A DNA stretch of 64,000 nt from an uncultured Verrucomicrobiae bacterium (lineage in GTDB: Bacteria > Verrucomicrobiota > Verrucomicrobiia > Chthoniobacterales > UBA10450), in assembly GCA_963815455.1 (NCBI GenBank), contig CAWFGO010000001.1:1671602-1735601 (forward strand). The letters run 5' to 3'. Under the pieces are notes generated by a model, which was given only the letters and a program-made list of their open reading frames with translations, had not been told where the DNA came from and did not search any database. The position numbers and the translations under genes were made by a program. Every line of letters starts with the position of its first letter. Position 1 is the first letter of the stretch. Of this stretch, positions 36,569-64,000 are shown piece by piece.

Positions 36569-36619
36569 CTCATTGACCTACACGATCCGCTGACCAAACA
36601 ACCTTTGACCCAACCGGAC

Positions 36620-36682
36620 CTAATCAAGATCGACATCGACGCGCAACGCCAAAGAGCGGTTGACTGGAGCGTTTTGTTAGAC
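36620..36682 (-). repeat. Truncated terminal attC (gene-proximal half only)
   Basis: Nearly identical to 44793-44854; the distal arm is missing. Confidence 0.8.
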
Positions 36683-36685
36683 CCA

Positions 36686-37186: not shown

Positions 37187-37315
37187 AGGTCTAACGAGAA
37201 CAAGATGAGCGACGGCGGACGGGGGCGCGCGTTGCTCGGAGTGGAAGGGTGAAAATCATCTCAAATGTGGAGCGCACGGCGGTCCGCCGTTCGCTGCATC
37301 GCCTTATAGGTTAAC

Positions 37316-37617
37316 CAGAGTTGTTCATGATCTGCGAAGGGGAGCGCGACAAAAGCGGCTCCCTCATCACCATCGACAGATTGTGAACAACTCTGCGGCC
37401 TCCAAAATGTTGAGCGTTGATAAGTCACCCGTTTTAATTCTTTTTCCACTTTGGGAGAACACGCACCGGCCCGTTACGAATATCCATTGCATGCGGTTCC
37501 AAGACCACTGTAACCAGACTTTCGGACGGGCTCGGTGCGCTCTCGTTCGACAAACGAATTCTCATTTGCCGACGCGTGTTCAACGCCTCGACTATAAGGC
37601 CTTCGCAGAACGGGAGC
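37316..37617 (+). ncRNA. Predicted bridge RNA of element A
   Basis: 5' hairpin (12-bp perfect IR 37316-37327/37384-37395); stem-loop 37463-37538 containing TAACCAG (rc of target CTGGTTA); stem-loop 37539-37617 containing CTATAAG (rc of donor CTTATAG). Confidence 0.75.
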
Positions 37618-37683
37618 AATTGCGTGTTTGCCCAAAAAGGCAAGATTAAAACCTCAATCCAACCAGAAAGGAACCAAACTCCC

Positions 37684-38952
37684 ATGAATCAAACCAACCA
37701 ATCCTTGGCCGCTTACATTGGCCTGGATCGATCGGATAAAAAAATCAACGTGAGCCTGCAGCGAGCCGGTGTTGCCAAAATTGAACGCAGCACCATCAAA
37801 GGCAGTGCCGAATCGCTTCATACCTGGGTGGCCGCGCTCTGCGCTCGGTTCCCGCATCAACGCGTGGCCATCTCTCTGGAGCAGCCGGCGGCCGGGCTCA
37901 TCCACGCGCTGATGGGTTACGAGTTCATCGTTCTGTTTCCCATTAATCCGGTAACCCTGGCCCGGTATCGCGAGGCCTTTACTCCGAGCCGGGCCAAGGA
38001 CGATCCCACGGATGGCGATTTTCTATGTGAACTGGTGGCGTTGCATGGCGAGCAACTCAAAGCCTGGCAACCCGATGATGTCGCTACCCGCAAGCTGCGT
38101 CACTTAGTCCAGGCCCGGCGCCGCAGTGTGAACCTGCGCACCCGGCTCTCCAATCAGCTCAAAGCGCTGTTGAAAAGTTATTTTCCCCAGGCCCTCGAGC
38201 TCTGCGGTGAGGACCTGACTACGCCGATGGCTTGCGCTTTTTTACAAAAATGGCCTTCTCTCCAGCAGCTCAACAAAGCGCGCCAAGAAACGATCCGCCG
38301 CTTTTATTATGCTCACAATGCCCGGCGCGGCGGTGTGATTGAAAAACGGCTTGCTCTGATCGCCCAAGCCGTCCCTCTGACTAACGATGCCGCTCTGATC
38401 GAAAGCTCGATCGTTACCGTTCAAGCGCTGGTTTTGGCCTTGCGCGCCGTTCACACTGCCATTGCCCGATACGATCGCGAGATCGGCCGCACCTTCGCTC
38501 AGCATCCCGACGCTTCACTCTTTGCCGCTCTGCCTGGCAGCGGCACTGTTTATAGCCCCCGGCTCCTGGCCGCCTTCGGCTCGCGGCGTGAGATCTTTGA
38601 AAACGCCGAATCCATGCTCAACTTCAGCGGCATCGCTCCGGTGCTCAAACGCAGTGGCGCCTCCACCACCATTGTTCGGCGTTACGCCCGGCCCCTTTTC
38701 GTTCACCAGAGCTTCATCGAATACGCTAACGAATTGATCCGGCATAGCCTCTGGGCCCGCGCCTTCTACCAGATGCACAAGGAAGCCCAGAAAAGTCACT
38801 GGGTCATCATCCGCGCCCTGGCTTACAAATGGATCCGGATCCTCTTCCGCTGCTGGCAGGAGCGCACCCCCTACGACGAATTGCGCTACCTCAAATCCCT
38901 CCAAAAAAGCCGCTCACCCTTGCTCCAATATCTCGCCCAACCAACCACTTAA
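37684..38952 (+). CDS. IS110-family DEDD recombinase/transposase A
   Basis: YIGLD, SLEQ, AKDDPTDG, LPGSG, GIAPVLKRSG (catalytic Ser), RALAYKWIRI. Confidence 0.95.
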   Translation: MNQTNQSLAAYIGLDRSDKKINVSLQRAGVAKIERSTIKGSAESLHTWVAALCARFPHQRVAISLEQPAAGLIHALMGYEFIVLFPINPVTLARYREAFTPSRAKDDPTDGDFLCELVALHGEQLKAWQPDDVATRKLRHLVQARRRSVNLRTRLSNQLKALLKSYFPQALELCGEDLTTPMACAFLQKWPSLQQLNKARQETIRRFYYAHNARRGGVIEKRLALIAQAVPLTNDAALIESSIVTVQALVLALRAVHTAIARYDREIGRTFAQHPDASLFAALPGSGTVYSPRLLAAFGSRREIFENAESMLNFSGIAPVLKRSGASTTIVRRYARPLFVHQSFIEYANELIRHSLWARAFYQMHKEAQKSHWVIIRALAYKWIRILFRCWQERTPYDELRYLKSLQKSRSPLLQYLAQPTT

Positions 38953-39024
38953 CCCGCCTCAATAACCTCACTCAAAACTATTGACGGACTACCTCAGATG
39001 TCTGGTTAGATGGTGGACGTGGCT

Positions 39025-39270
39025 TCATCTCGGATGGTGAAAGAGACTCTTCATAAAATGGTAACCATGATATCCGACGATTACCACGAGCGACCAAAAT
39101 CCCGTGCAAACGATTACAGCGAGAGCCTTCGCGAGTAATAGTTGCGGCCATGTGCAATCACATGCAGGGGCTGCGAGCAAACCCGACATCACTCCAAGAA
39201 AGAAAACGGCGTATAGAAAGAAGCGATGAGGTCTCTGATCGAGTGTTGGCTCTTCAATGGGCTTCATCAT
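39025..39270 (-). CDS. Cassette 10: small two-TM protein (MKPI family)
   Basis: MMKPI...GYHGYHFMKSLF; similar to 44162-44404. Confidence 0.7.
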   Translation of the reverse strand: MMKPIEEPTLDQRPHRFFLYAVFFLGVMSGLLAAPACDCTWPQLLLAKALAVIVCTGFWSLVVIVGYHGYHFMKSLFHHPR

Positions 39271-39421
39271 CTAACGAGACGGAAGTGAGCTACCGCCACC
39301 GAGAGCGAGCGGGGCTCGAAGTAAAGAGGTTCTAGTCATCTGAAAATGTGAGCGTACAACGGTCCGCCGTTAGATGCCATGAAGGGTTGAAAAGCGTGGG
39401 CAAAACGGGCACACGCGTTGT

Positions 39422-40542
39422 ATGAAAAACAAAACAACAACAACCCTTCATGGCGGAGAGAAGTTTAACAATTCAAGCGCCCCTGGCAATGGGGCAGTGA
39501 GGCGGGTGTGGAAGCTTGGGCTGGACGTGGACCTGCGTTTTATGGTGGTGGCGATCCAGTGTGGGCGGGGAACGATTGGGCCGGCGCGGAAGTATACTCG
39601 CGAGCAGTTGCTCGAGTGGGTGAAGCAAAAAGTGGGTGTAGGCGATGTGGTCTACGCGGTGTGGGAATGCTGCGGATTTGGGTACACGTTCACGAGCAAT
39701 TAACTCAAGCGGGAGCAAAGAGCGTCGGGACGACCCCGATGCGATTAAATTTGGAGCGGCGGCGGAAGAACGACCGGATGGATGCGCGCGAGTTGTGTGT
39801 GCGATTGAGCCGTTACCTGGATGGGCAGAGAGAGGAATTAAGACCAATCCGAATCCCGAGCCGGGCGGAGCAACAACGGCGGGAGCTGGGGCGGCAGCGG
39901 GAGTTTTGGAAACGCCAAGTGCGGCGGCTGGAGAATCACGGGCGAGCGCTGCGGATCGAGCACGAGCATGAGACGCTGGAGGCTGGGTGGGGCGGACCGC
40001 GGAAGTGGAAACGAATCGGGCCGCAGTGCAGCGAGTTTGTGCGCGGGCAGCTTGAACCGGTCATGGAACAGATCCGAGCGGCCAAAGCGCAATTGGATCG
40101 GTTGACCCAGGAGATTGAAGCGCTGGTGAGGGAAGAAAAAATCCCGACGGGATTGGGTGCGCTAACGGTATCGCTGATCGACGGGGAGGTGTGCGATTGG
40201 CAACGCTTCAAGCATCGCAAAGCCGTGGGCAGTTACACTGGGTGTTGTCCTAGCGAATACAGTTCGGCCGGGATCCAGCGTTTTGGAAGCATCGACCGGC
40301 ACGGCAACAAACATTTGCGCACGCTCCTGGTCGAGGCGGTCTGGCGACTTCTTCGCTGGCAGCCTAACTGGCATGCTCGTCAGAAATATCTGGAGAAATT
40401 AAGGCACGGCGCCTCGCTGAAAAAGAAAATCGCAGTGGCCCTGGCCCGGCAACTGGCCATAGACATCTGGCGTTGGCGAACCGGCCGGGCCAGTGCCGCC
40501 GAACTGGGCTGGAGCCTGTCTACATCCCAGGTGAAACCCTAA
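39422..40542 (+). CDS. IS110-family recombinase B (frameshift near 39690)
   Basis: LGLDVD, WECCGFGY, RKNDRMDA, GCCPSEYSSAG, GNKHLRTLLVEAVW, VALARQLA. Confidence 0.9.
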
Positions 40543-40590
40543 CAAACAGATTTAACCCTCAGCTTTTACGAAACGGAACTTCCAAGCAAA

Positions 40591-40811
40591 GTTTGATTTG
40601 GCCGCAGGGTGGAACGCTGCTCGGCGCTGGAGCTGGTCCTTTGAAACGAAGGGATCATCGCTTAGATGGGGCGCGTTCCGCCCAAAGCGGCTTCCCAAAG
40701 TCAGGCACGACATCATGGGCTCGCACAACAAAAGCGATGCTCGAATAGGAGCTGGTGACTCGCCCCGGCGAGACAACACGACAGAGGGAAGCTGCACCCT
40801 GCGGATCAAAC
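40591..40811 (+). ncRNA. Predicted seek/bridge RNA of element B
   Basis: Stem 40607-40617/40673-40683 encloses CGCTGGAGCT (rc of target AGCTCCAGCG), an inner hairpin and TTAG; second stem 40687-40696/40786-40795 encloses ATAGGAG. Confidence 0.75.
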
Positions 40812-40909
40812 CACTAAAGATTGGAAAAACCGGGAAAGGAAAAAACTAAAGAAAAACAAACAATACCCGTTCCACGGTTGACAACCCTCATAGGGGCTCC
40901 AGCGATTGG

Positions 40910-41889: not shown

Positions 41890-42044
41890 TCGTCTAACGA
41901 GACCGAGCTCAGCCACCGCTGGCGGGAGCGAGCGTGGTTTGCAATGAACGTGTTTTCATAAAGGAAAGCGAGGCCGTACGCCGGCCAGCGGTTGGAGTCA
42001 TGTAGGCTTCCAGGACAGCGCCCGGAGGCACTATCCTGGAAGTT

Positions 42045-43175
42045 ATGATTACCTACAAAGTAGAAGATAACGTTGTGACCCAGTTTTCTGCAATCTTTAA
42101 AGGGCTTGGGTCGAAACCGAGTGTGATTCACATGGCGCTGGATGTCGAACTCCACGGCGGAGTGATGGCGGTGCGAGTGGCGGGCGGGCGACCAATGGAT
42201 TGCGGCCAGTGTAGCCGGAGCACGATTGCGAAGTTGGCCTGGGAACTGATTGACCGCGGGCACCGGGTGGTACTGGTGGAGGAGGCGTGCGGGTTTGGCT
42301 ACGCGTTTCATCGGCAACTGCGTGGAATGGGAGTGGAGGCGTATGTGGTGGCGACCGAGATGCTCAACCGCAAACGCAAGACCAATCGGCGGGATGCGGC
42401 CAAGCTGCTCGATCAGCTTTACGATTACGATGTTAACGGGCACAAAAAAGCGCTGCGCATAATCCGGGTCCCAACCCTCGATGAGCAGAAGAGCCGGCGG
42501 CTTTGCCGGATGCGCTCGCAGTTGGTCAAGGTGCGTAACATCATGGAAGGACAAGGCCGCGGGCTCCTGTTCGATTTCGATTACCATGAAGTGCCGCCAG
42601 GCTGGTGGGGACCGCGCAAATGGCCCAGGCTGCGGGCAAAACTTCTCCAGCACGATGCCTGGCTGATCGAGATGCTCGAGCATCACCAGCGTTTGCTCAT
42701 TGCTCAGCAGAGAAGAATTGCCGAGCTGGAGCGCGAGATCGCCCGGGAAAGTCATTACGATGGGCGCAAAGTAGCCAAGGGCCTGGGCCAAATCACCTTC
42801 GATTCTCTGCAACGCGAAGCGCTGGATTGGAAACGCTTCGCCAATCGCAGAGCGATCGGCTCTTACATTGGCTGTTGTCCGGCGGAATTTAGTACCGGCT
42901 CCAGACAAAAGCTTGGGAGTATCGATCGACTGGGTAATCGCCGCATGCGCACGCTGTTAGTCGAAGCGGTCTGGCGACTGAAAAAATGGAATCCGGGCTG
43001 GCGGGGATTTGGGAAATTTCCCCACGTCTTTGGTCACGGAGCCAGCGCCCGCGGAGCCACGCGCAAAAAAGCGGTGGTAGCCTGTGCCCGACTGCTGGCG
43101 ATCGATCTGTGGCGACTCCAAACCGGGCGGGCCACGCTCAAAGATCTCGGACTCAAACCAGCCCAGGCCCGATGA
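42045..43175 (+). CDS. IS110-family recombinase C
   Basis: MALDVE, EEACGFGY, RKTNRRDA, GCCPAEFSTG, GNRRMRTLLVEAVW; homologous to B. Confidence 0.92.
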   Translation: MITYKVEDNVVTQFSAIFKGLGSKPSVIHMALDVELHGGVMAVRVAGGRPMDCGQCSRSTIAKLAWELIDRGHRVVLVEEACGFGYAFHRQLRGMGVEAYVVATEMLNRKRKTNRRDAAKLLDQLYDYDVNGHKKALRIIRVPTLDEQKSRRLCRMRSQLVKVRNIMEGQGRGLLFDFDYHEVPPGWWGPRKWPRLRAKLLQHDAWLIEMLEHHQRLLIAQQRRIAELEREIARESHYDGRKVAKGLGQITFDSLQREALDWKRFANRRAIGSYIGCCPAEFSTGSRQKLGSIDRLGNRRMRTLLVEAVWRLKKWNPGWRGFGKFPHVFGHGASARGATRKKAVVACARLLAIDLWRLQTGRATLKDLGLKPAQAR

Positions 43176-43296
43176 ACACAGAAAAACTGTCATACGATAC
43201 CCGCATGGCTTGCTCCATCAAAGCCCCCAAAGGTTTGGTAGGGGGACTTTGATTCCGCAATCCATGCTTTAGCGAACCTCACTAAATGAATACTTT

Positions 43297-43503
43297 GGAC
43301 AGTTGGGCGACAGATCGAAGCTCTGCAGCTGGCCGGCCGCACTGGCCTGGCCGCCGTGTTAGAATGGTCGGCGCCCCTCTGTCCTCCCTCTTGATACGCG
43401 TCGAATTAGACACATTGCACTGCTCCAAGAATAAGCATGTGCGGATAGGAGTTTGTCTCGCATCCCTTCAAAAAGGAATAAGCCGAACCAAAATAGAGGG
43501 AGG
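43297..43503 (+). ncRNA. Predicted seek/bridge RNA of element C
   Basis: GGACAG..GGGCG / CGCCC..CTGTCC stem encloses CTGCAGCT, an inner hairpin and GTTAG; second stem 43383-43391/43495-43503 encloses ATAGGAG. Confidence 0.72.
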
Positions 43504-43589
43504 AGCTGTTCCGAAGCCTAACCAACTAAATCGAATGAACTAAAACCTTTTTACCTCCAAACGCTGATCCTGTTCACCACGCTTGACCC

Positions 43590-44015
43590 TCATAGGGGCT
43601 GCAGCGATTGGTTAGGCGTTTGGCGATACTCGCGTGTGACGTCCTCAATCCCCTTCGCAAGGACAACGCCCTCAAATCCCACGGCCGAAGAAATCTCCCA
43701 CGCGTGCAAAGACTCTGACTCAAGCGCTGCCTTATATCGCGTGCGATCGCTGTCCCACCGCGAGACACCATGCTGGCGATTCCACTCCGCCAAGCGGTCG
43801 GCGAACCGATCTACAAACTCGGTCAATGGAATCTGTGCGATGTCCAGGATGATCGCGCCGCCGGTATGGACGAAATGGTAAAACTCAACATCGCGGAAGC
43901 GAATGTGCGATTCCTCTGGGGGTTGTGGCGGATAGTCGTAGACAAGGTGCAGTACGATTTCGCCGCCGAACCTGCGAACTTCGTAGCCGCTGAGGTGGAA
44001 ATCGTGGAAGCGCAT
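43590..44015 (-). CDS. Cassette 7: hypothetical cytoplasmic protein (reads into the attC)
   Basis: MRFHDFHLSGYEV...ISSAVGFEGVVLAK. Confidence 0.75.
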   Translation of the reverse strand: MRFHDFHLSGYEVRRFGGEIVLHLVYDYPPQPPEESHIRFRDVEFYHFVHTGGAIILDIAQIPLTEFVDRFADRLAEWNRQHGVSRWDSDRTRYKAALESESLHAWEISSAVGFEGVVLAKGIEDVTREYRQTPNQSLQPL

Positions 44016-44161: not shown

Positions 44162-44404
44162 TCATGTGCGGAGAAATAGGCTGCGGAAGAATCGGTAGCC
44201 GTGGTATCCGGCCATAATGAAGGGCCATGAGAAAAGAAAACCGCCAAACGCACAACCAATCTGAGAAAGAACGAGTTGGTATCCGCTGATATCGCACATC
44301 GGTCTGACTGCGATGCCCGCAGAGATGCCAAACGCAGCGGGGAGATACAGGGTGACAATCCGAGGAGGCTTTTTCTCCGGCAGTGATGTGTCGATCGGTT
44401 TCAC
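44162..44404 (-). CDS. Cassette 6: small two-TM protein (MKPI family)
   Basis: [16 protein letters not shown]...GYHGYRFFRSLF. Confidence 0.7.
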   Translation of the reverse strand: MKPIDTSLPEKKPPRIVTLYLPAAFGISAGIAVRPMCDISGYQLVLSQIGCAFGGFLFSWPFIMAGYHGYRFFRSLFLRT

Positions 44405-44731: not shown

Positions 44732-44855
44732 CTAACGAGACGGAGCTCAGCCACCGCTCCGGCAGCGCGGCTCCGCAACGGTTGAGAATACACTAATCAA
44801 GATCGACATCGACGCGCAACGCCAAAGAGCGGTTGGCTGGAGCGATTTGTTAGAT
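44730..44855 (-). repeat. attC 4
   Basis: ATCTAACGAGACGGAGCTCAGCCACCGCTC...GAGCGGTTGGCTGGAGCGATTTGTTAGAT. Confidence 0.92.
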
Positions 44856-46211: not shown

Positions 46212-46663
46212 CGCCTGTCTACATCTGGTGCTCGTATCAATGACTTCGCCATTGCTCGCGCGAATTACGGTGACGGCGACGCCGCCCATCATGTTGGGTG
46301 GCAGATAACCTCCAAACGATCCAAAAGTCGCCGGACCGGACGGCATAAAAGCTGTTCTGCTGCGATCTCGCATTTGCCGTAAATGGCGCCACAAACCGCG
46401 CTGTGAATGGCCGCTGCTACCTCCGCCGTTGGGACGACAGGCGATGCATTGCTCATCGGTGACTCGCTGCGATACCTGCCCGGCGTGCTGGGTAGAGAAG
46501 ATCGTCGGCGGTTGGTGGCGCGAGCCGCAGCGAGCAATCCCAGCCCGATGCCCAACGATGTAACCGGCTGCGCCCAGATGCCAATCGCAACGCAGAACAA
46601 ACGGGTGACAACAATGATCCGAGGAGGCTTTTTCTCCGGCAGTGATGTGTCGATCGGTTTCAC
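46206..46663 (-). CDS. Cassette 1: MKPI-family N-terminus fused to a YbbC/YhhH-like (NTF2-fold immunity) domain, frameshifted
   Basis: [11 protein letters not shown]....AIYG...EQ, then in another frame [24 protein letters not shown], matching the family pattern VPD.ETA.....IYG...G.LP....GGV....I....G.I. Confidence 0.55.
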
Positions 46664-46664
46664 G

Positions 46665-46690
46665 ATCTAACGAGAAGTGGACGGAGAAAC
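46665..46690 (-). other. Putative attI site (core GTTAGAT at 46671-46665)
   Basis: Last core site before intI, with no palindromic arm beyond it. Confidence 0.7.
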
Positions 46691-46764
46691 CATGTAATTA
46701 CTTTGCGGAGTTTGTCTGTCTAATTGGCTTGCCTGCCCGGGAGCAGCCGAATAAAACTGTGGTC

Positions 46765-47820
46765 ATGTCCTCTGATTTAACTCTGGAAGAATCAGCTGCC
46801 AAGTACAAAATGCCTGCGGCTCAGGAGGCCCAGCCCAGGTTGCTCGATCGGGTCCGCGATGTCATGCGGCTGAAGCATTATTCTTTGCGAACAGAGAGAA
46901 CCTATTGGGAATGGATCGAAAGATTCATTCGTTATAACGGCACAGGGCTGCCTCCAGCGGCCTGGCCGCATCCCTCTAAGCTGGGTCCGGACGAAGTGAC
47001 GGCCTTTCTGACTCATCTGGCCCGGGACCTGAACGTTGCCGCTGCAACCCAGAATCAGGCCTTGAGCGCGTTGTTGTTTCTTTACAAGGAAGTGCTCAAG
47101 AAAGACATCGGCTGGCTCGATGGAGTAGAGCGAGCAAAGAAACCGTCGCGCCTTCCGGTGGTGCTGACGCGCAGCGAAGTAAAACGCATTTTCGAGCATC
47201 TCCGGGGCACGCCTCGATTGATGGCAGGCCTGCTTTACGGTAGCGGGCTGCGCTTGATGGAGTGCGTCCGGTTACGCGTGAAGGACGTAGATTTCGGCTA
47301 CACGCAAATCGTGGTGCGTAACGGCAAGGGTGGAAAGGATCGAGTGACGATGTTGCCGGTCAATCTAGCCGTGTCGTTACAACTCCACCTCGATAAGGTG
47401 CGGGCGCAACATGCAGAGGATCTGGCCAACGGGTTCGGTGCGGTTTATCTGCCCGACGCGTTAGAGCGAAAATATCCCAACGCGGCGCGGGAGTTCGCCT
47501 GGCAGTATGTGTTTCCCTCGCGCAAGCTCTCGATCGATCCGCGTTCGGGCTCGGGAGGAGAACCGCCATTTCGGGGGCGACACCACGCCAACGAGACCTG
47601 GTTACAACAGGAGGTGAAGCGAGCCGTACGCGAATCGGGCATCGATAAAGCAGCCAGTTGTCATACGTTGCGACACTCATTTGCCACACACTTGCTGGAA
47701 AATGGCTCCGATATCCGGACTGTTCAGGCCTTGCTCGGGCACAAAGATGTAAGCACGACCATGATTTATACGCACGTTTTGAACCGGCCGGGGATTGGAG
47801 TGCGAAGTCCGCTGGACTAA
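46765..47820 (+). CDS. intI: Integron integrase
   Basis: [31 protein letters not shown], IntI-specific insertion [12 protein letters not shown]...[38 protein letters not shown]. Confidence 0.98.
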
Positions 47821-56192: not shown

Positions 56193-58774
56193 TTACTCGT
56201 AGCGCAGAGCTTCGACCGGGTTTAGTGCAGCGGCCCGGCGCGCGGGCAACCAGGTTGCGACGAGTGCGGCAGCGGCCAGCAGCAGCGGAGCGGCCGTAAA
56301 CGCAATGGGATCGAAGGCGCCGACTTCGTACAAAACTCCACTGAGTATCTTTCCGGTCGCTGCCGCGAGGAGCAGACCGAGCGCGATGCCGCTGAAAAGC
56401 ATGATCGACCCTTCGCGCATAATTAGTCGCAGAACCGCTCCGGGCTGTGCGCCCAGAGCCATGCGAATCCCGATCTCGCGTGTTCGCCGCGCGACGGAAT
56501 ACGCCTTTACTCCGTAAAGACCGACTACAGCGAGACCGAGCGCGAGTCCGCCGAAGATGGAGAACAACGCCGCTCCGGCCCGGACAATCCAGAGTTGCAA
56601 GTTGGAATCGAGATGCTGCGAAAATGTTTTCAGCGATAGGATTGGGATCGAAGGATCGACATCGCGCACCGTTCGTCGCAATAGATCGGCGGCGCTGGCT
56701 TCGTTACCGGGAGGGAGCGAACGAAATCGAACAAAAAAATTCACGTCGCTTTGGAATCCACGCGCGAATGGCAAATAGATGGCGCATCCGGGCTCTTTTT
56801 CGAAAAGCGCGCGTCGCGTCGCCGGCACGATACCAACTATTTCAATCGTCTCTTCCGCTTTCTGTTCTTCACTCAAGTCGGCGGTCATTCCCATCTTCTT
56901 GTCTCCCCCGCCTTGTTTGGCTGCGTTCTCGCTGGCGTATTGAATCCGCTGGCCGAGCGCGTTCCCTTCGGGCCAAAGTTTTTTCGCCAACACCTCGTCG
57001 ATGATCGCGACTTTCGGGCCAGGCTGCGTGGCTTCCGCTTCGGTGAACGCGCGGCCGCGAATCACAGGCAGCCCAACCGTGGGAAAGTAATCTGCGCCCA
57101 CACTGTTCCATGCCGCATCAAAAGCGAGACCCTCGGCGGCCGTAGCTGGTTTGTCGTCCGGCCCGGGGTGAACGCCTGCTCGCTGAATGTTTCGGCCCAA
57201 CGAAATCATCCCAAACGGCACCGTTGCGGAAACGCTCGCGTGTTCAACCCCCGGAAGCGCAGCAAGCCGCTCGCTCAGGTTTTGATAGAGTTGCTCCGCG
57301 CGTTTCGATTCGTAACCAGCCAGGCTGGCATCGACTTCGAGAAGAAAACTTGCCCCCGGCTTAAGACCGGTATCAACGGACGCGGCTTTGGCCGCGCCAC
57401 GAATGAACAAGGCTGCGGCAGTAAGCAGCGCGAGCGAGAACGCAATTTGTATAACCACCAGCGGATTGCGCGGCAGAAATTTCCATCGACGGCGCACAAC
57501 GTCTTCGCCGGCATGCTCCTTTAGATCGGTTATCACCGCGCTGCGCGAAATTTTCAAGGCCGGTCCCAGCGCAAACAAAAGCGTGCCGAGCAGGCAAAAT
57601 CCGAATGTCGCACCCAGAACCGCGGGACTCGGTCCACTCGCCCAGACGATGTCGAGCGGTATCATTTTGCGAAGTGAGCCGACCAGGAGATCGGACGACC
57701 AGAGCCCGAGAATCAGTCCGCCCAACCCGCCAAGCAACGCCAGCACGAACCCCTCGACCAGGAGCTGTCGCACAACGAGTGCACGACTGCCGCCAAGGGC
57801 GAGTCGGATCGCGATTTCTTTTCGGCGCGCCGTCCGCGCGCAAGGAGCATGTTGGCGAGATTCAGGCAGGCCACCAGCAACACCACCGTCGCCATGCCGA
57901 GTAGCAACGGCCCGATTGCCACCATGCCGCCATCGCCTGACGGGCTCGTGCTCACCGAATTGCGCGACACCGGTTCGGTTATGAACGTTTGATTCTTTTG
58001 TTCGACCGGAAACGCTTTTTCCAAATTCGCCGCTAAACCTTCCAGTGCGGGTTCGGCCGCAGCCGCGGTCATTCCGGATTTGAGTCGGCCGAGAATGAGC
58101 AATTGATTGCCTTTGCGATCGGCAATTGTCGTCTTGTTCTCCGAGGCAAAATCGTTTGCCACTCGATCGTAAACGCTCATCGGCAGCCAGGCATCCGCTG
58201 AGAAAACCTGCATCGTGCCGGTGAAACCCTTTGGCGTGATCCCGACGATGGTGAATGCGCGGCCGTTGATGAGAAGCTGCGACCCGAGCACGCCGGGATC
58301 GAGACATGTTTTGCCAGTAACTATAGCTGACGATCGCGACCGGTGTGTCACGCCCGAGCGTTTCTTCCTCGGGCAAGAACACACGACCTCGCGCCAGGGG
58401 AACTCCGAGCACTGAGAAATAGTTTGAGCTGACGATGGCTGCGAACCGCGCCGCGTGTCGCCTTTCTGGCCGAGACCGACCAGGGCGAGATTGAAGCACG
58501 TCACGTCAGTAAAGACTGTGTTTTGCGCGCGAATATCGAGATAAGTCGGATAAGAAAATCCGCGAAAGGTTTTCGGGTTCTTTTTGTCCTGGGAAAAGAG
58601 CTGCACCACTTCGTGTGGCCTCGCGTAAGCCAGGGTGGAGCGATGATAGCGTGCTCACCAGGCTAAATACCGCCGTTTCGCGCCAATGCCCAGCGCGAGG
58701 ACAGTCGCCGCGGCAATTGTGAATCCCGGCGCCTTTAACAGCTGCCGGAAGGCGAACTTAAAATCCTGAATCAT
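56193..58774 (-). CDS. ADOP/MacB-type ABC permease 1 (several frameshifts)
   Basis: MIQDFKFAFRQL start, LLVACLNLANMLLARG, RTREIGIRMALGA, NPVEALRYE. Confidence 0.88.
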
Positions 58775-58796
58775 GTGCGGCAGGGACCGCTCTTGT

Positions 58797-59498
58797 TTAG
58801 GCGGCGACCCGGTTGTCTTCCACCACCCGGCCGTCGAACAGATGACGGTCCGATCGGCGTGCTCAGCGAAGCGCTCGATCGTGCGTGACCATGCAGATGG
58901 TCGCGCCGCCGGCGTGCAATTCCTTCAGCAAATCCATGACCGCTTCGCCATTGCGCGAATCGAGATTGCCCGTCGGTTCGTCGGCCAGCAGGATCGCCGG
59001 TTTGCCGGCCAGCGCGCGCGCCACGGCCACGCGTTGCTGCTGGCCGCCGGAAAGCTGGCTCGGAAAATGCTTCACCCGATGCGCCATGCCCACGCGTTCC
59101 AGCGCTTCGCGTCACGGCGCCTGTTCGTTCGCCCGCCGCCATTCCGCGATAGGTCAGCGGAAGCTCGACATTTTCGAAGACAGTCAGATCGCCGATCAAA
59201 TTGAAGCTTTGAAAAATAAACCCGATTTCGCGATTGCGAATGCGCGCGCGCTCGGGAAACGAGAGATTCGCCACTTCGCTGCCTTCAAGGAATAGCTTCC
59301 GTCCGACGGCGAGTCGACAGGCCGAGGATCGAGAATAGCGTCGATTTGCCGCAGCCGGACGGGCCGGCGATGGAAAGATATTCGCCGGGGCGAATATCCA
59401 GATGAATGCCGGAGAGCGCATGGGTTTCCACCTCATCGGTGAGGAAACACTTTGGTAACGTCTTGAAGGTGAATAAGAGGAGTGGATCCGTTTTTCAT
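58797..59498 (-). CDS. ABC transporter ATP-binding protein (frameshifted)
   Basis: [43 protein letters not shown]. Confidence 0.9.
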
Positions 59499-59542
59499 AG
59501 GTTGAGTTGTTGGCTTGTTTTGGGTTTGGTTTTGGATGTGTG

Positions 59543-60802
59543 TTAGTTCAGTCGAATGCGATCGTGGGCATCCCAGGCGCTGGTATCGGAAAGATGACCT
59601 GGTCGCCCGGCTGGAGACCGCTCGGGATTTCAATGGTGTTGACGGAGCTCTTGCCCGAGTTTCACCGGCGTGCGGACCGCTTCGGAGCTGCCGGAACAAG
59701 TTTGAAAATTCCGACGGTGTTGTTTTCCTGGCCAAAAGCCGGCCGGCCGACATAAACGACATCGTTCAATCGTTCGAGCTCGATGGTTCCATCGACGCTC
59801 AAATCCGGGCGCGCGCCTTTGGGCAAATCGCCGTCGAGCGCCACGTCGACCGTGACGGTTCCCTGCTCGACCGCGGGATCGACGCGGATGACGTGGCCGT
59901 TCACCATGCCGTTTCGCGTGTCGATCGACGGCCTCCTGGTTGATCTGAATATCTTTCGCCTGAGTCTCCGCGATTTTGATCTGGGCCTTGAGCTTGGTTG
60001 GGTCGGCCACGCGAGCCAGATTATCGCCGAATTTTCACCCGCTGACCGACTCGACCGGCAACTGCTGCAGCACGCCGGACATGCCGGCTCGCACATGCAA
60101 CGCCTCGACCTGGTCCGGCTTTAATTTCGCGAGTTGCTTGGCCTGATCGACCGCGGCTTGTTTCGAAGCGAGCTGCGGCTCGATCGAGTCCTCGCGGAAA
60201 ACTCAAGGCGCTTTTGCTCGATCTCGTCGCGATTCGCCAGCTCCGCTTCCTTCACCTTCGAGGTCTTGTAGACCAACTCGGCAACGAGGCCATTCTTCGC
60301 CAGCTGATCGTTGGTCTGCCGCTCCATTTTCGCCTGTTCGATACTCGGAATGAACACGCGCGGTCGTTGATTCCTGGTCGAGAAGCTCGCGTTGCAGAGT
60401 TGCGCGCAGGGTCGTCAGCTCGGCTTCCGCCGCCTGTCGACTGTAGACTCGGCGTCGTGAGCCGCTCTGTTCGAGCTCGGGACTGCTCATTTCAAGAATC
60501 ACCGTGTCGGGCTCCACATGTGTGCCCGGCCGAACGATAATCTTTTCCACGCGGCCTTCCGTGCTCGCCGCGATCCAGCGAATATCTTCCGGAACCAGTG
60601 TTCCGAGCCCGCGCACCTGGCGCACCATCGGACCGCGTTTGACCGTGTCGATCCAAACCGTCGAGCGATCGACGCTCGGCACGGCCGGCTTCAACCGCGA
60701 GAAACCAATGGTCACCAGGATCACTCCCAGCGCCATCGCCGAAATCGTGATGATCCGCTTTTTCCGTTTTTTGGCCGCAACATCGGGCCGGGGAATATCC
60801 AT
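59543..60802 (-). CDS. Efflux periplasmic adaptor (HlyD/MacA-type), frameshifted
   Basis: MDIPRP, TVKRGPMVRQVRGLGTLVP, IDTRNG, GARPDLSVDGTIELERL. Confidence 0.88.
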
Positions 60803-60911
60803 CGAGGAAAGGCTGAGCGTAAAGCCGCTCGGGCCGCACAATGGTAGTTTCGGCTTTTGCTTCGCTTTTCGTCATCGGGGTTGATCGGCTTCCAAGTCAG
60901 AGTCCGCCGGT

Positions 60912-61196
60912 TCAGCGAATGAGACCGAGAACGGCGTGCGCTGCCTGGAACAACGGCAAACAGACGGTAAGCATCACTGTGCTGAAGACGGCCGCTTCCG
61001 CCAGGAAATCGCGATTTGCTTCGCCTTCGAAATACGCGCGGGTGACCTGGAAAGAATTGCTTACGTCCAGGCTCGAGCAACGCGCGGTGTAACCGCCGAT
61101 CCCGACCGCCTGGTAATTGGAGTCCGTGACTGGAAGCCGGCGATGAGTTGCATTCGCTCGCTCGGTTTCGTCGATTATTTGAACTGTGGGTTTCAT
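60912..61196 (-). CDS. Small hypothetical protein with C-terminal TM, first gene of the operon
   Basis: Clean 94-aa ORF directly downstream of the sigma54 promoter. Confidence 0.55.
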   Translation of the reverse strand: MKPTVQIIDETERANATHRRLPVTDSNYQAVGIGGYTARCSSLDVSNSFQVTRAYFEGEANRDFLAEAAVFSTVMLTVCLPLFQAAHAVLGLIR

Positions 61197-61267
61197 ATTT
61201 TCTTCTTAGGTGGGATGCGTTTGCGAGCGCATTTCGATTAGAATTTTTTAAAGGCGTTACCTCCTAT

Positions 61268-61283
61268 TGCAAAGCCCGTGCCA
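61268..61283 (-). promoter_or_regulatory. Sigma54 (-24/-12) promoter
   Basis: Minus strand TGGCAC-GGGCT-TTGCA is a perfect consensus, with a sigma54 activator encoded upstream. Confidence 0.88.
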
Positions 61284-61356
61284 TCGGTGAATGGAAAGTC
61301 ATAAGTGACTAGTGATGAGGACTTGTTGATTACAACATTTTCGGCGTGCCACGAAC

Positions 61357-61396
61357 CGCCCCGCTTATGGGACACCGTTGTCCCGAATACGGGAGC
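61357..61396. promoter_or_regulatory. Candidate enhancer (UAS) for the NtrC-family regulator
   Basis: Tandem palindromic sites CCCGCTTATGGGACA and TGTCCCGAATACGGGA about 80-110 bp upstream of the -24 box. Confidence 0.55.
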
Positions 61397-61416
61397 GAAA
61401 ACCGATGTATCGTGCT

Positions 61417-61553
61417 TGTCATCCTTCTGCCCCCTGAGCGGAGCGAACGATCTCGCGAGTATGGACAACGTTTGCGAATGGCGAAGCGATCATGCTTCAG
61501 TGTTGTTCGATCCTTTTCAGTACGATGTGTGTTCCCTCGCTTTGCTCAGGATG
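61417..61553. repeat. Degenerate REP-like element, family of 2167-2247
   Basis: TGTCATCCT..CCTGAGCGGAGCGA ... TCGCTTTGCTCAGGATG. Confidence 0.55.
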
Positions 61554-62883
61554 CGCATGCCTAACGCGGAATCGAAGAAACGCTTCCGCGCCAGTGCCGC
61601 CGCGTCGATTTGCCAGGGCGAGCCAACCGCCGTGGGCTTCCGCGATTTGGCGGCTGAGTGCCAAACCGATTCCGGAGCCTTCCGGTTTCGTCGTGAAAAA
61701 TGGCACGAAAAGATTGGCCGGGTTCATGATGCCGTGGCCTTCATCAATGATGAAGACTTCGACGCAGTCCCTGGTCTCGTGGCAGCCCACGGTGACTCCG
61801 CCGCCGGTTTCGAGCGCAGCGTCGACCGCGTTATGCAGAAGATTGATCAACACTTGCTCGATCTGCGCCGCATCGGCCCTGAATTTTCTTTTTCGGTCCG
61901 GGCAGAAGTCTAAACAGCAGTCGCGGCTCCAGATGATGACGCGCCGGACAAGGACATCGAGGTCAAGCTCTTCTTTCTGCGGCGGGGGCAGCGGGCCAGC
62001 TTCGTATACGCTTGCATGAAACGGCTCAACGCGTCCGCTCTCGCGTCGATTGATTTGAGCCCGCTCTGCGCGTCTTCCCTCCAATCGGATGGCGGAGGAT
62101 CGCGAGTCAAGAGGGCTTCCAAACTGCCCGCGATCGATTTGATCGGCGCAAACGAATTGTTCATTCGTGTCCGAGCACGCGAACGATGCTTTGCCATGCG
62201 CTGCGTTCCTCTTCCCGCAAAGTGCGACTCAGATCGGTCAGCACAAGCAGTTCGTGCGGCAAGCCGTATTCGCGAAAGGCGCTGCTGACCCCCCACCGGC
62301 CGGACCGCCGGGAAAATCAGCGTGAGCGGCGCGTCCTCGTCCGAATCCAGACAGGCCGCAAGTCCCAGTCGTCGGCAGTGCGACCGAGCAATTTATCGAT
62401 TGGCTCCCAAGCAAATGTTCGCCCGCCCGGTTCACCAGGCGCAAACACCGGTCCGGGTCGAACGTAAAAACAGCGACCTCGATCTCCGCCATGATGGTGC
62501 GAACAGCGCGGTCGCCTCGAACGCCCCAACCGTTGCACCCGGAGCGTTTCGCCTAGCAAATTGACTCCAGGAACGCCTCTCCAAGCGCATCGTCTTCCCG
62601 GGCGCCACGCGCGCGGATCGAATAATCCCTTCGCGCAATGCCGCCAGAAGATTCGTCATTGTTTGCAGCGGACGGATGAGATGCTCGCGTGCGCTGGAGA
62701 TAAATCCGGCAAGGCAGCCGACAATGACGAGGGTCAGCGTCCATTGCACCTTGGCGCTGTAATCCCCGGACCAAAGAATGATCAAGGCACGATCACAATG
62801 GCCGGCGCGGCGGCGGCAAGCACCAGCAGGGTCAAACGATTCTCGTGCGACAAGCGATGTTGGTGTTTCGACGAACGGTTCAT
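61497..62883 (-). CDS. PAS/HAMP sensor histidine kinase (many frameshifts)
   Basis: NNSFAPIKSIAGSL, QVLINLLHNA, DEGHG, FVPFFTTK, GSGIGLALSRQI. Confidence 0.88.
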
Positions 62884-62894
62884 CGAAACGGGGG

Positions 62895-62929
62895 GCAATT
62901 CGCAATCCGCAATCCGCAATCCAAAATTC
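62895..62929. repeat. Heptamer tandem repeat (GCAATCC)n
   Basis: GCAATTC GCAATCC GCAATCC GCAATCC AAAATTC in the regulator-kinase spacer. Confidence 0.8.
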
Positions 62930-64000
62930 TTACAATCCATAATGCTGAAGTCGCCGATAAAACGCGCTCCTGCTCAAGCCCAGCGCTTCCGCTGCTTTGC
63001 GGGCGTTCCCATCATTTCTCGCCAGCGCTTTCTTGATGAGAAAAGCTTCCACATCTTCCAGGCTCATGTCCTCTAGGCTTCGCGTATCGCCCCGGCCGGC
63101 CGTCAGACCCAGATCGGCCGCCTTGATCTGCGGACCGCGCGTCATCAGGACCGCGCGTTCGATCACGTGATCCAGTTCCCGAACATTGCCGGGGAACAAA
63201 TAAAATTAAGCCGTTCGCGGGCGGTTTCGTCGAACCCGGTAATCTGCTTGCGATACCGTTGAATGTGCTGGCGCAAAAAATGATTCGCCAGCAGCATGAT
63301 GTCTTCCCGCCGGTCGCGCAGCGGAGGCAACGGGACTTCGATCGTGTTCAGCCGGAAAAGCAAATCCTGACGAAAACGACCGGCCGCAACTTCCTCCTTC
63401 AGGCTCGAATTCATAGCGGAAATGATCCGGACGTTTGCCTGCAAGGTTTTTGAAGAGCCCACCCGCTCGAATTCGCCGGTCTCGATCACGCGCAACAGTT
63501 TTGCCTGCTGACTGAGCGGAATATTTGCGATTTCGTCCATGAACAGCGTGCTTTCGTCCGCGAGTTCGAACCGGCCGGCGCGGTCGCTTTTGGCATCCGT
63601 GAATGCTCCTTTCACGTGCCCAAACAGTTCGCTCTCGAAAAGCGTCTGGGAAAGGCCAGACCATGTTTACGGTGATCATCGATTTGGCGGCGCGGGGCGA
63701 AAGCGAATGCAGCGCCTGGGCTACCAGCCCTTTTCCGGTCCCGTTCTCGCCGGTGATCAGCACGTTCGCGTCGGATGGCGCAACTTGTGAGATCATTCCG
63801 ATCACCGGCCGCATGGCCGGCGATTCGGCAATTAGATTTGGCGCGCTCCCGCGAAGAAGTTCGTTCTCGGCTTCCAGTTTGCGGCCGCGGCGGAGCGCCC
63901 CCGCCAGTTCGACTTGCGTCCGCACAATCGCGAGCAACCTCTCGTTGTCCCACGGCTTCGGCACGAAGTCGCGGGCGCCCCGCTTCATCGCTTCCACCGC
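62930..64000 (-). CDS. Sigma54-dependent NtrC-family response regulator (5'-partial, frameshifted)
   Basis: Receiver end [36 protein letters not shown], Fis-type HTH. Confidence 0.93.

Follow-up and report, generated by a model that had tools for sequence, protein, structure and literature searches.

An IS110-group element beside an integron attC site encodes a putative bridge RNA whose guides covary with target and donor sites among its relatives

The window analysed here, a stretch of 64,000 nucleotides from an uncultured Verrucomicrobiae bacterium, carries an intact IS110-group element, element A, which spans positions 37305-39003, has a two-loop RNA upstream of its recombinase gene, and lies beside the R'' box of the tenth attC site (attC 10) of an integron array (Table 1). 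In our reading, to which we assign a probability of roughly 90%, positions 37305-37683 constitute the left end of the element and encode a bridge RNA that guides recombination of the IS621 kind, joining the circle junction to the R'' end of attC under relaxed core rules. The evidence derives from sequence, fold, covariation and genomic context. It suggests that the lineage has most likely redirected its guides on many occasions in nature and that it is less strict than IS621 about the crossover point.

Table 1. Features of element A and its insertion site (positions count from the first letter of the window)
Feature	Position	Strand	Evidence or remark
attC 10, larger part (R' box, L boxes)	37191..37302	+	92.6 bits, covariance model of 27 genome attC sites
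Left target TGCATCGC	37295..37302	+	sequence
Left core CT, target-derived	37303..37304	+	CT/AT/TT among relatives
Right donor TATAGG, also -10-like hexamer of putative circle-junction promoter	37305..37310	+	promoter function predicted
5' hairpin with 12-bp perfect base stem	37316..37391	+	stem halves 37316-37327 / 37380-37391
Bridge RNA core: enclosing stem, target-binding loop, donor-binding loop	37457..37629	+	covarying fold
Left target guide TCCATTGC, 8 nt	37483..37490	+	relatives mostly TGCATCGC or TCCATCGC
Right target guide, core and handshake TAACC-AG-AC	37511..37519	+	exact reverse complement of right junction 39000-39008
Left donor guide CTCATTTG, 6/8 to donor	37561..37568	+	degenerate across A's clade, exact in most sister clades
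Right donor guide, core and handshake CTATA-AG-GC	37592..37600	+	exact reverse complement of left junction 37301-37309
IS110-family DEDD recombinase, 422 aa, open	37684..38952	+	Pfam PF01548, PF02371 above cut-off
-35-like hexamer TTGACG	38981..38986	+	function predicted
Left donor CTCAGATGT	38993..39001	+	
Right core CT, donor-derived	39002..39003	+	CT in 27/27 close relatives
Right target GGTTAG	39004..39009	+	severed R'' end of attC 10
Integron integrase of array	46642..47820	+	TIGR02249 454.7 bits (cut-off 265)

Element A interrupts attC 10 one base from the R'' box, is bounded by two CT dinucleotides and is oriented opposite to the cassette genes. For attC 10 we use the usual attC terms R', R'', L box and bottom strand; its + strand appears to be the bottom strand, judging by the cassette orientation (open reading frames on the - strand) and by attC anatomy. 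The non-coding ends, 379 nt upstream of the reading frame and 49 nt from the stop codon to the right core, show the arrangement of the IS110 group rather than of IS1111, with the long end upstream and the short end downstream. Once the ends of the element join, TTGACG and TATAGG are spaced by 17 nt, and a promoter scan of the linear element yielded no sites, as expected if the promoter forms at the junction; in relatives the right donor is kept as TATAG or TATTG. The element occurs once in the 3.6-Mb assembly (90% complete). The sequence-only reading regarded attC 10 as the only attC with CT directly before GGTTAG, which holds within the window, but 9 of 62 attC-like matches genome-wide have this CT and those nine lack a copy of element A. 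Twelve empty attC ends match the left target guide better than the occupied site does, and one of them has CT. A GGTTAAC motif in the left end of the element (37305-37315) lies 4 bases outward of the lost GGTTAG, a displacement that probably prevents it from restoring attC 10.

Residues D15, E66, D107, D110 and S324 of the recombinase are invariant in 50 relatives and, by alignment to IS621, are predicted to be catalytic. The protein scores 130 against NCBIfam NF033542, below the cut-off of 140, and the nearest named transposase found is that of ISEsa2 (42% over 98% of the length). In a 26-row tree, A's clade, the other attC clades, ISEsa2 and members outside attC form one radiation (100/100), within which A's clade groups with a clade inserted on the R' side of attC (92/93). 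Independent origins of attC targeting within the lineage were considered and set aside, since the backbone of the tree is unresolved and monophyly of the 14 attC-targeters is not rejected (p-AU 0.128). ISEsa2, which stands for the branch of ISEsa2, ISCfr13, ISCps4 and ISCps5, shares the RNA motifs of this radiation and has a left donor guide that matches its own donor; unlike A, the ISEsa2 copy examined lies outside attC, with no match to the attC model. The literature searched held no description of a bridge RNA for the ISEsa2 branch, and ISEsa2 appeared there in supplementary tables only.

A protein search revealed a tight clade at 78-87% identity to A, separated by a gap from matches at about 50-56%, and the cluster of one close homolog includes proteins named Verrucomicrobiota. 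Loci were collected from a metagenome scan (best 80 of 519) and from searches of 401 and 301 genomes, and a single-protein scan of genome contigs gave one distant locus. From 134 loci, 94 of at least 40% identity had a parsable RNA, 71 of these had both ends, and 60 were unique.

The 379-nt stretch 37305-37683 folds at z = -7.35, a value that none of 100 shuffles equalled, and the 176-nt RNA core at z = -4.78. Every motif and stem named in the sequence-only reading is present where it was placed, including the 12-bp perfect hairpin, and comparable 5' hairpins with paired changes were seen by eye in three clades. That reading lacked a further stem, 37457-37462/37624-37629, which encloses both loops; the halves of the loop-1 stem start at 37463, 37469, 37526 and 37532, and the loop-2 stem pairs 37539-37548 with 37608-37617, including one G-U pair. 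In an alignment of 46 RNA cores, from which the R'-side clade was left out, 20 of 29 pairs show two-sided changes and 95.2% of cells are paired. Slid controls reached 30-46% as against 95%, and none of 500 shuffles gave covariation as high, a test that kinship among the loci inflates. The guide segments are unpaired in the consensus fold, outside the covarying stems, and both loops have a common frame, ACGAAT-left guide-hairpin-right guide-TTCG. Rfam detected a tRNA only over the window and no bridge-RNA family.

The guide segments proposed earlier were recovered at 37485-37490 (CATTGC), 37511-37517 (TAACCAG) and 37592-37598 (CTATAAG), as was CTCATTTGCC at 37561-37570 with its 7/10 match to the donor. 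The right guides extend to 9 nt, with TAACCAGAC the exact reverse complement of the right junction and CTATAAGGC that of the left, and because they match over this length they would include handshake bases of the IS621 type, the extra 2 nt reading the other partner. In 20,000 dinucleotide shuffles the 7-mers occurred at frequencies of 0.0135 (TAACCAG) and 0.0032 (CTATAAG), the 9-mers at 0.0011 and 0.0004, and both 9-mers together never. The 7-mers alone are thus not rare (0.013), and TAACCAG recurs at 37312, outside the loops, which would suit the view that the matches are due to chance or are DNA-level end repeats with no role as RNA; the joint chance, however, is below 1 in 20,000, the covariation extends over 15 guide classes and the stems covary with G-U pairs, so that this view has a negligible probability and, unless the homolog set is artefactual, is refuted by the shuffles and the covariation.

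Covariation of guides with sites was assessed by shuffling the pairing of RNAs to elements, the left target being scored as the best of four registers in both observed and null data. Over the 60 unique loci (p<=0.0023 in each case) the observed and null means were 6.52 and 4.34 of 8 for the left target, 4.65 and 3.26 of 5 for the right target, 1.68 and 0.84 for the core in each right guide and 6.35 and 5.92 of 8 for the left donor; for handshake position 7 they were 0.75 and 0.63, against a null of 0.51 for both. Position 6 showed no covariation in the same test (p 0.15-0.70), and in IS621, as described in PMC11208158, handshake guides likewise covary at position 7 and not at 6. When the loci were collapsed to 15 guide classes, which are not fully independent since three come from A's own clade, the left target, right target, cores, left donor and target-loop handshake kept p<=0.004, although one mis-parsed locus (L102) counts against covariation. 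At this level the donor-loop handshake was not significant (p 0.07), and the right donor gave p 0.065 in a comparison that is partly circular, both sides being located by a TATA-like pattern. With that reservation for the right donor, all four guides covary with their own target and donor. Within A's clade, guide and flank change together, to CAGCGC in L048 and L054 and to CATCGA in L035, and donor changes are followed by the left donor guide in L061, L068, L103 and ISEsa2. A bridge RNA with a target loop, then a donor loop, and with readable guides, as first proposed from the sequence, is borne out by these data: the guides lie outside the covarying stems and track their sites, where guides folded into stems or indifferent to their sites had been named as grounds for rejection.

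The left target guide scores 6.5 of 8 against the site that A occupies, but the genome's commonest, CATCGC-type, attC end fits better, at 7.5 of 8. The guide carries a C-to-U change private to A, with U in no other aligned relative, which may partly close the target loop: in the predicted fold the two target guides of A pair in part with each other, with mean unpaired probabilities of 0.29 (left) and 0.47 (right), compared with 0.52-0.76 and 0.74-0.87 in 12 close relatives. Since the private U pairs with the right guide, and TCCATTGC fits the 12 empty ends better, copy A may be attenuated. A stronger version, that the guides are real but copy A is attenuated or inactive, with the C-to-U change closing the target loop and a weak left donor guide impairing excision, we consider somewhat unlikely. 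The single copy, despite 12 better empty sites, is in its favour together with the low accessibility of the guide, but the reading frame, catalytic residues, promoter halves and both junctions are intact, and bound protein may hold the target loop open. The weakness of the left donor guide, which in A has two pyrimidine mismatches to the donor, is moreover clade-wide (6-7/8 in 18 loci, against 7-8/8 in most sister clades other than the R'-side one), and since the clade occupies at least 24 different left flanks this weakness does not prevent spread.

The degenerate left donor guide could also fit a short seekRNA, in which site selection falls to the target loop alone and the donor loop can be dispensed with; this has been reported for ISEc21, where a 58-nt RNA was enough for transposition (PMC11187229). 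ISEc21 resembles A in its upstream non-coding region, the bottom-strand guide placed first, a junction promoter and natural redirection in a relative, but it lies on a different branch, has a 358-aa transposase, targets IS3 transposase genes and is reported without a duplicated core. For element A this explanation is improbable, given that covariation across clades is seen in the stems and core bases of the donor loop and in its left guide; together with the exact 9-nt right guide, this covariation indicates selection on the donor loop.

In layout, the bridge RNA reading aligns element A with IS621 and ISCro4 (IS622): the RNA is upstream, with a 5' hairpin, target loop and donor loop in that order and each left guide before the right, handshake bases covary at position 7, the core of A is CT, a junction promoter is predicted, and the recombinase combines DEDD and serine residues. 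The designation IS621-type given by the sequence-only reading is therefore apt for the layout but not for the 422-aa recombinase, which is weakly alignable (E 2e-6 for IS621 and 9e-8 for ISCro4), nor for the left guides, which in A's lineage start about 1-2 nt further out and end before the core. The targets differ as well, attC for A's lineage and REP for IS621. All four IS621 guides are reported to include the core, and IS621 strongly favours pairing to both strands of the core and tolerates donor mismatches poorly (PMC11208160); its second core T is almost invariant (PMC11208158).

Among close relatives of A the left junction core is CT in 14, AT in 7 and TT in 3 of 24, and the right core is invariably CT (Fisher p 1.5e-4). 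The need for CT at the target, implied by the sequence-only reading, is contradicted by the ten left junctions with AT or TT, whose first core base is not that of the donor core, although at A's own site the two cores are the same. CT may still be preferred, as 14/24 compared with 9/62 attC-like ends might indicate, but these counts come from different genomes and are only suggestive. Both core bases are covered by the left guide in 1/41 loci for the target and 0/41 for the donor, the R'-side clade not being counted. As judged from these alignments, element A departs from two features of IS621, the core in all four guide pairings and a matched core with T as second base, the latter nevertheless present at A's own site. 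With left guides that end before the core, the first target core base would be free and only the second shared, and a free first base would allow the element to use the variable ends of the large attC family.

The sister clades extend this series. One uses an AT core with CAATA/TATTG, others have GT, TT or CT cores before TGTTA or GTTAG, and a further one is inserted at the opposite (R') attC end, with AA as left core in 17/19 and GA as right core in 19/19, in contrast to IS621; L006 and L108 have non-attC targets that match their guides. In the clade near the R' end (L070, L079, L081, L086 and others) the shared core base is A, not T, and the target-loop guide of L086 and L074 reads the donor's GA. 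In L084 and L110 the left end is far longer, at about 500 nt, and the target, which matches their guides, is not an attC.

A broader reading of the whole, which we advance tentatively and with the odds somewhat against it, is that the ISEsa2 branch constitutes a second, IS1111-independent radiation of attC parasites, with a bridge RNA of relaxed core rules. The left guides would exclude the core, the first core base would act as a third handshake base and the second base could be A, as in the R'-side clade, where the donor-loop guide would read the target core AA and some target-loop guides the donor GA. In its boldest form a single strand would be exchanged and replication would complete the event, which would explain a target core on the left and a donor core on the right. 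One-sided core inheritance was rejected as proof of such an exchange. The IS621 bottom cut is placed between 9* and 10* in PMC11208158 and by our own mapping falls between top positions 5 and 6; such a cut makes positions 6-9 heteroduplex, so that repair towards the top strand explains the one-sided cores too. The pattern fits either process, and sequence cannot separate them. Single-strand excision by IS621 has been reported (bioRxiv 10.64898/2026.08.31.748434). If the relaxed-core reading is true, unmatched or non-T cores could be joined, lifting a main limit on IS621/IS622 editing design, and, should it hold in the laboratory, bridge recombinases would be available that do not need a matched CT core; a published ortholog screen was centred on the IS621-like clade, with designs requiring matching cores (10.1101/2025.05.14.653916).

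The extent of attC targeting was examined with a covariance model built from 27 sites of one genome and run on 84 loci. Its match adjoins the junction in 10 of the 25 close relatives that have a left end (two sharing a left flank and one weak, E 0.22), in 10/11 AT-core relatives and in 11/16 R'-side relatives with a right end. Among the 15 close relatives lacking an abutting full attC, two have flanks that are too short, L040 and L056 lie in already occupied ends, and L047 looks off-target. The model, limited to one genome's sites, found no match at the 14 TGTTA-clade loci searched, whose sites resemble other attC types by eye and pass an arm-alignment test in 6/10, nor at L006, L108, L084, L110, L009, L016, L027, ISEsa2 or the Leptolyngbya copy. 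The arm test passed its control but is weak (2/16, 6/10, 6/14, 3/8 and 0/2 above the 95th control percentile), and two fold-based tests were dropped because they gave no score for A's own site, which served as positive control. Four clades of A's lineage occupy attC sites.

The presence of four clades in attC, and of a right guide that pairs with the presumed recombinogenic strand, might suggest that the element reads attC as a folded single-stranded hairpin or depends on IntI, the RNA matches being secondary. This is very unlikely, as L006 and L108, with the same scaffold, target guide-matched sites without a match to the attC model, and at L040 and L056 the hairpin had already been broken by another element. 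The A-type insertion into these occupied ends argues that a short linear sequence of about 15 nt is read, not the hairpin. In L040 (600-1140) a B-type element lies about 13 nt upstream in one attC end, and in L056 (1-830) another IS110-like element lies about 9 nt upstream, an arrangement common to L051 and L052.

Under the bridge RNA reading, element A would circularise, by analogy to IS621, and the joined ends would create the promoter for transcription of RNA and recombinase. The target loop would then open the attC end, with the left guide on one strand and TAACC on the other, and the donor loop would open the circle junction; top strands would be cut after the core and swapped. By our own count the handshake of element A forms two Watson-Crick pairs before strand exchange and four after it, which would favour insertion, and an asymmetry of this kind is reported to favour insertion by IS621 (PMC13626964). 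Expression, binding, cleavage and the effect on IntI are predictions of this scheme. With the R'' box severed, use of attC 10 by IntI should stop until the element leaves, and IS110 insertions in attC should more generally freeze or fuse cassettes.

The attC-targeting elements described in PMC11187229 are IS1111 members with downstream RNAs, sub-terminal inverted repeats, transposases of 330-350 aa and the top-strand guide first. Element A would share with this IS1111-attC group (ISKpn4, ISPst6, ISPa21, ISPa25) RNA-guided insertion at one attC end and, where fixity alone is compared, its lineage inserts at a fixed attC position. It differs in its upstream RNA, 49-nt right end and opposite guide order, and sub-terminal inverted repeats (7-17 bp in that group) are not evident by eye in its ends. 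The source data of PMC11187229 give 16.3% identity to ISKpn4 and ISPst6, a figure for ISEsa2 rather than A. By these sequence features element A is not an IS1111-attC member. Our literature search found no upstream-RNA IS110 element aimed at attC, but it covered few subscription papers and ISfinder lay outside it, so that absence is unproven. These loci extend the range of readable bridge RNAs with handshake bases to a branch distant from IS621 and provide a natural reprogramming series in which targets, cores and donors all shift with the guides.

The genomes concerned, which are probably verrucomicrobial, have long attC sites in which different IS110-family elements use several fixed positions, sometimes with two elements in one site. 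Element B (39372-40899) has a long downstream non-coding region, inverted repeats close to its ends and, in this copy, a reading frame that is frameshifted close to its 5' end; each of its five genome copies has an attC left flank and is inserted at the L-box side. Element C (41993-43597) is single-copy, has a downstream non-coding region and occupies attC 7 at the same L-box position as B, and its right end resembles that of B. As elements A, B and C are all of the IS110 family, 3 of about 11 attC sites in the array are occupied by this family. Some 60 attC sites, each 118-127 bp long, are arranged in several arrays on contigs C1, C2, C3 and C6 of G000, which also hold four or more integron-integrase loci, some of these split. 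At 56193-64000 several ABC-permease, ATPase and response-regulator reading frames appear frameshifted, which suggests assembly indels there. The attC near 36600-36685 resembles that at 44732, and related short cassette reading frames (MKPI...) occur at 44162-44404, 46289-46663 and 39025-39270, one copy abutting the integrase.
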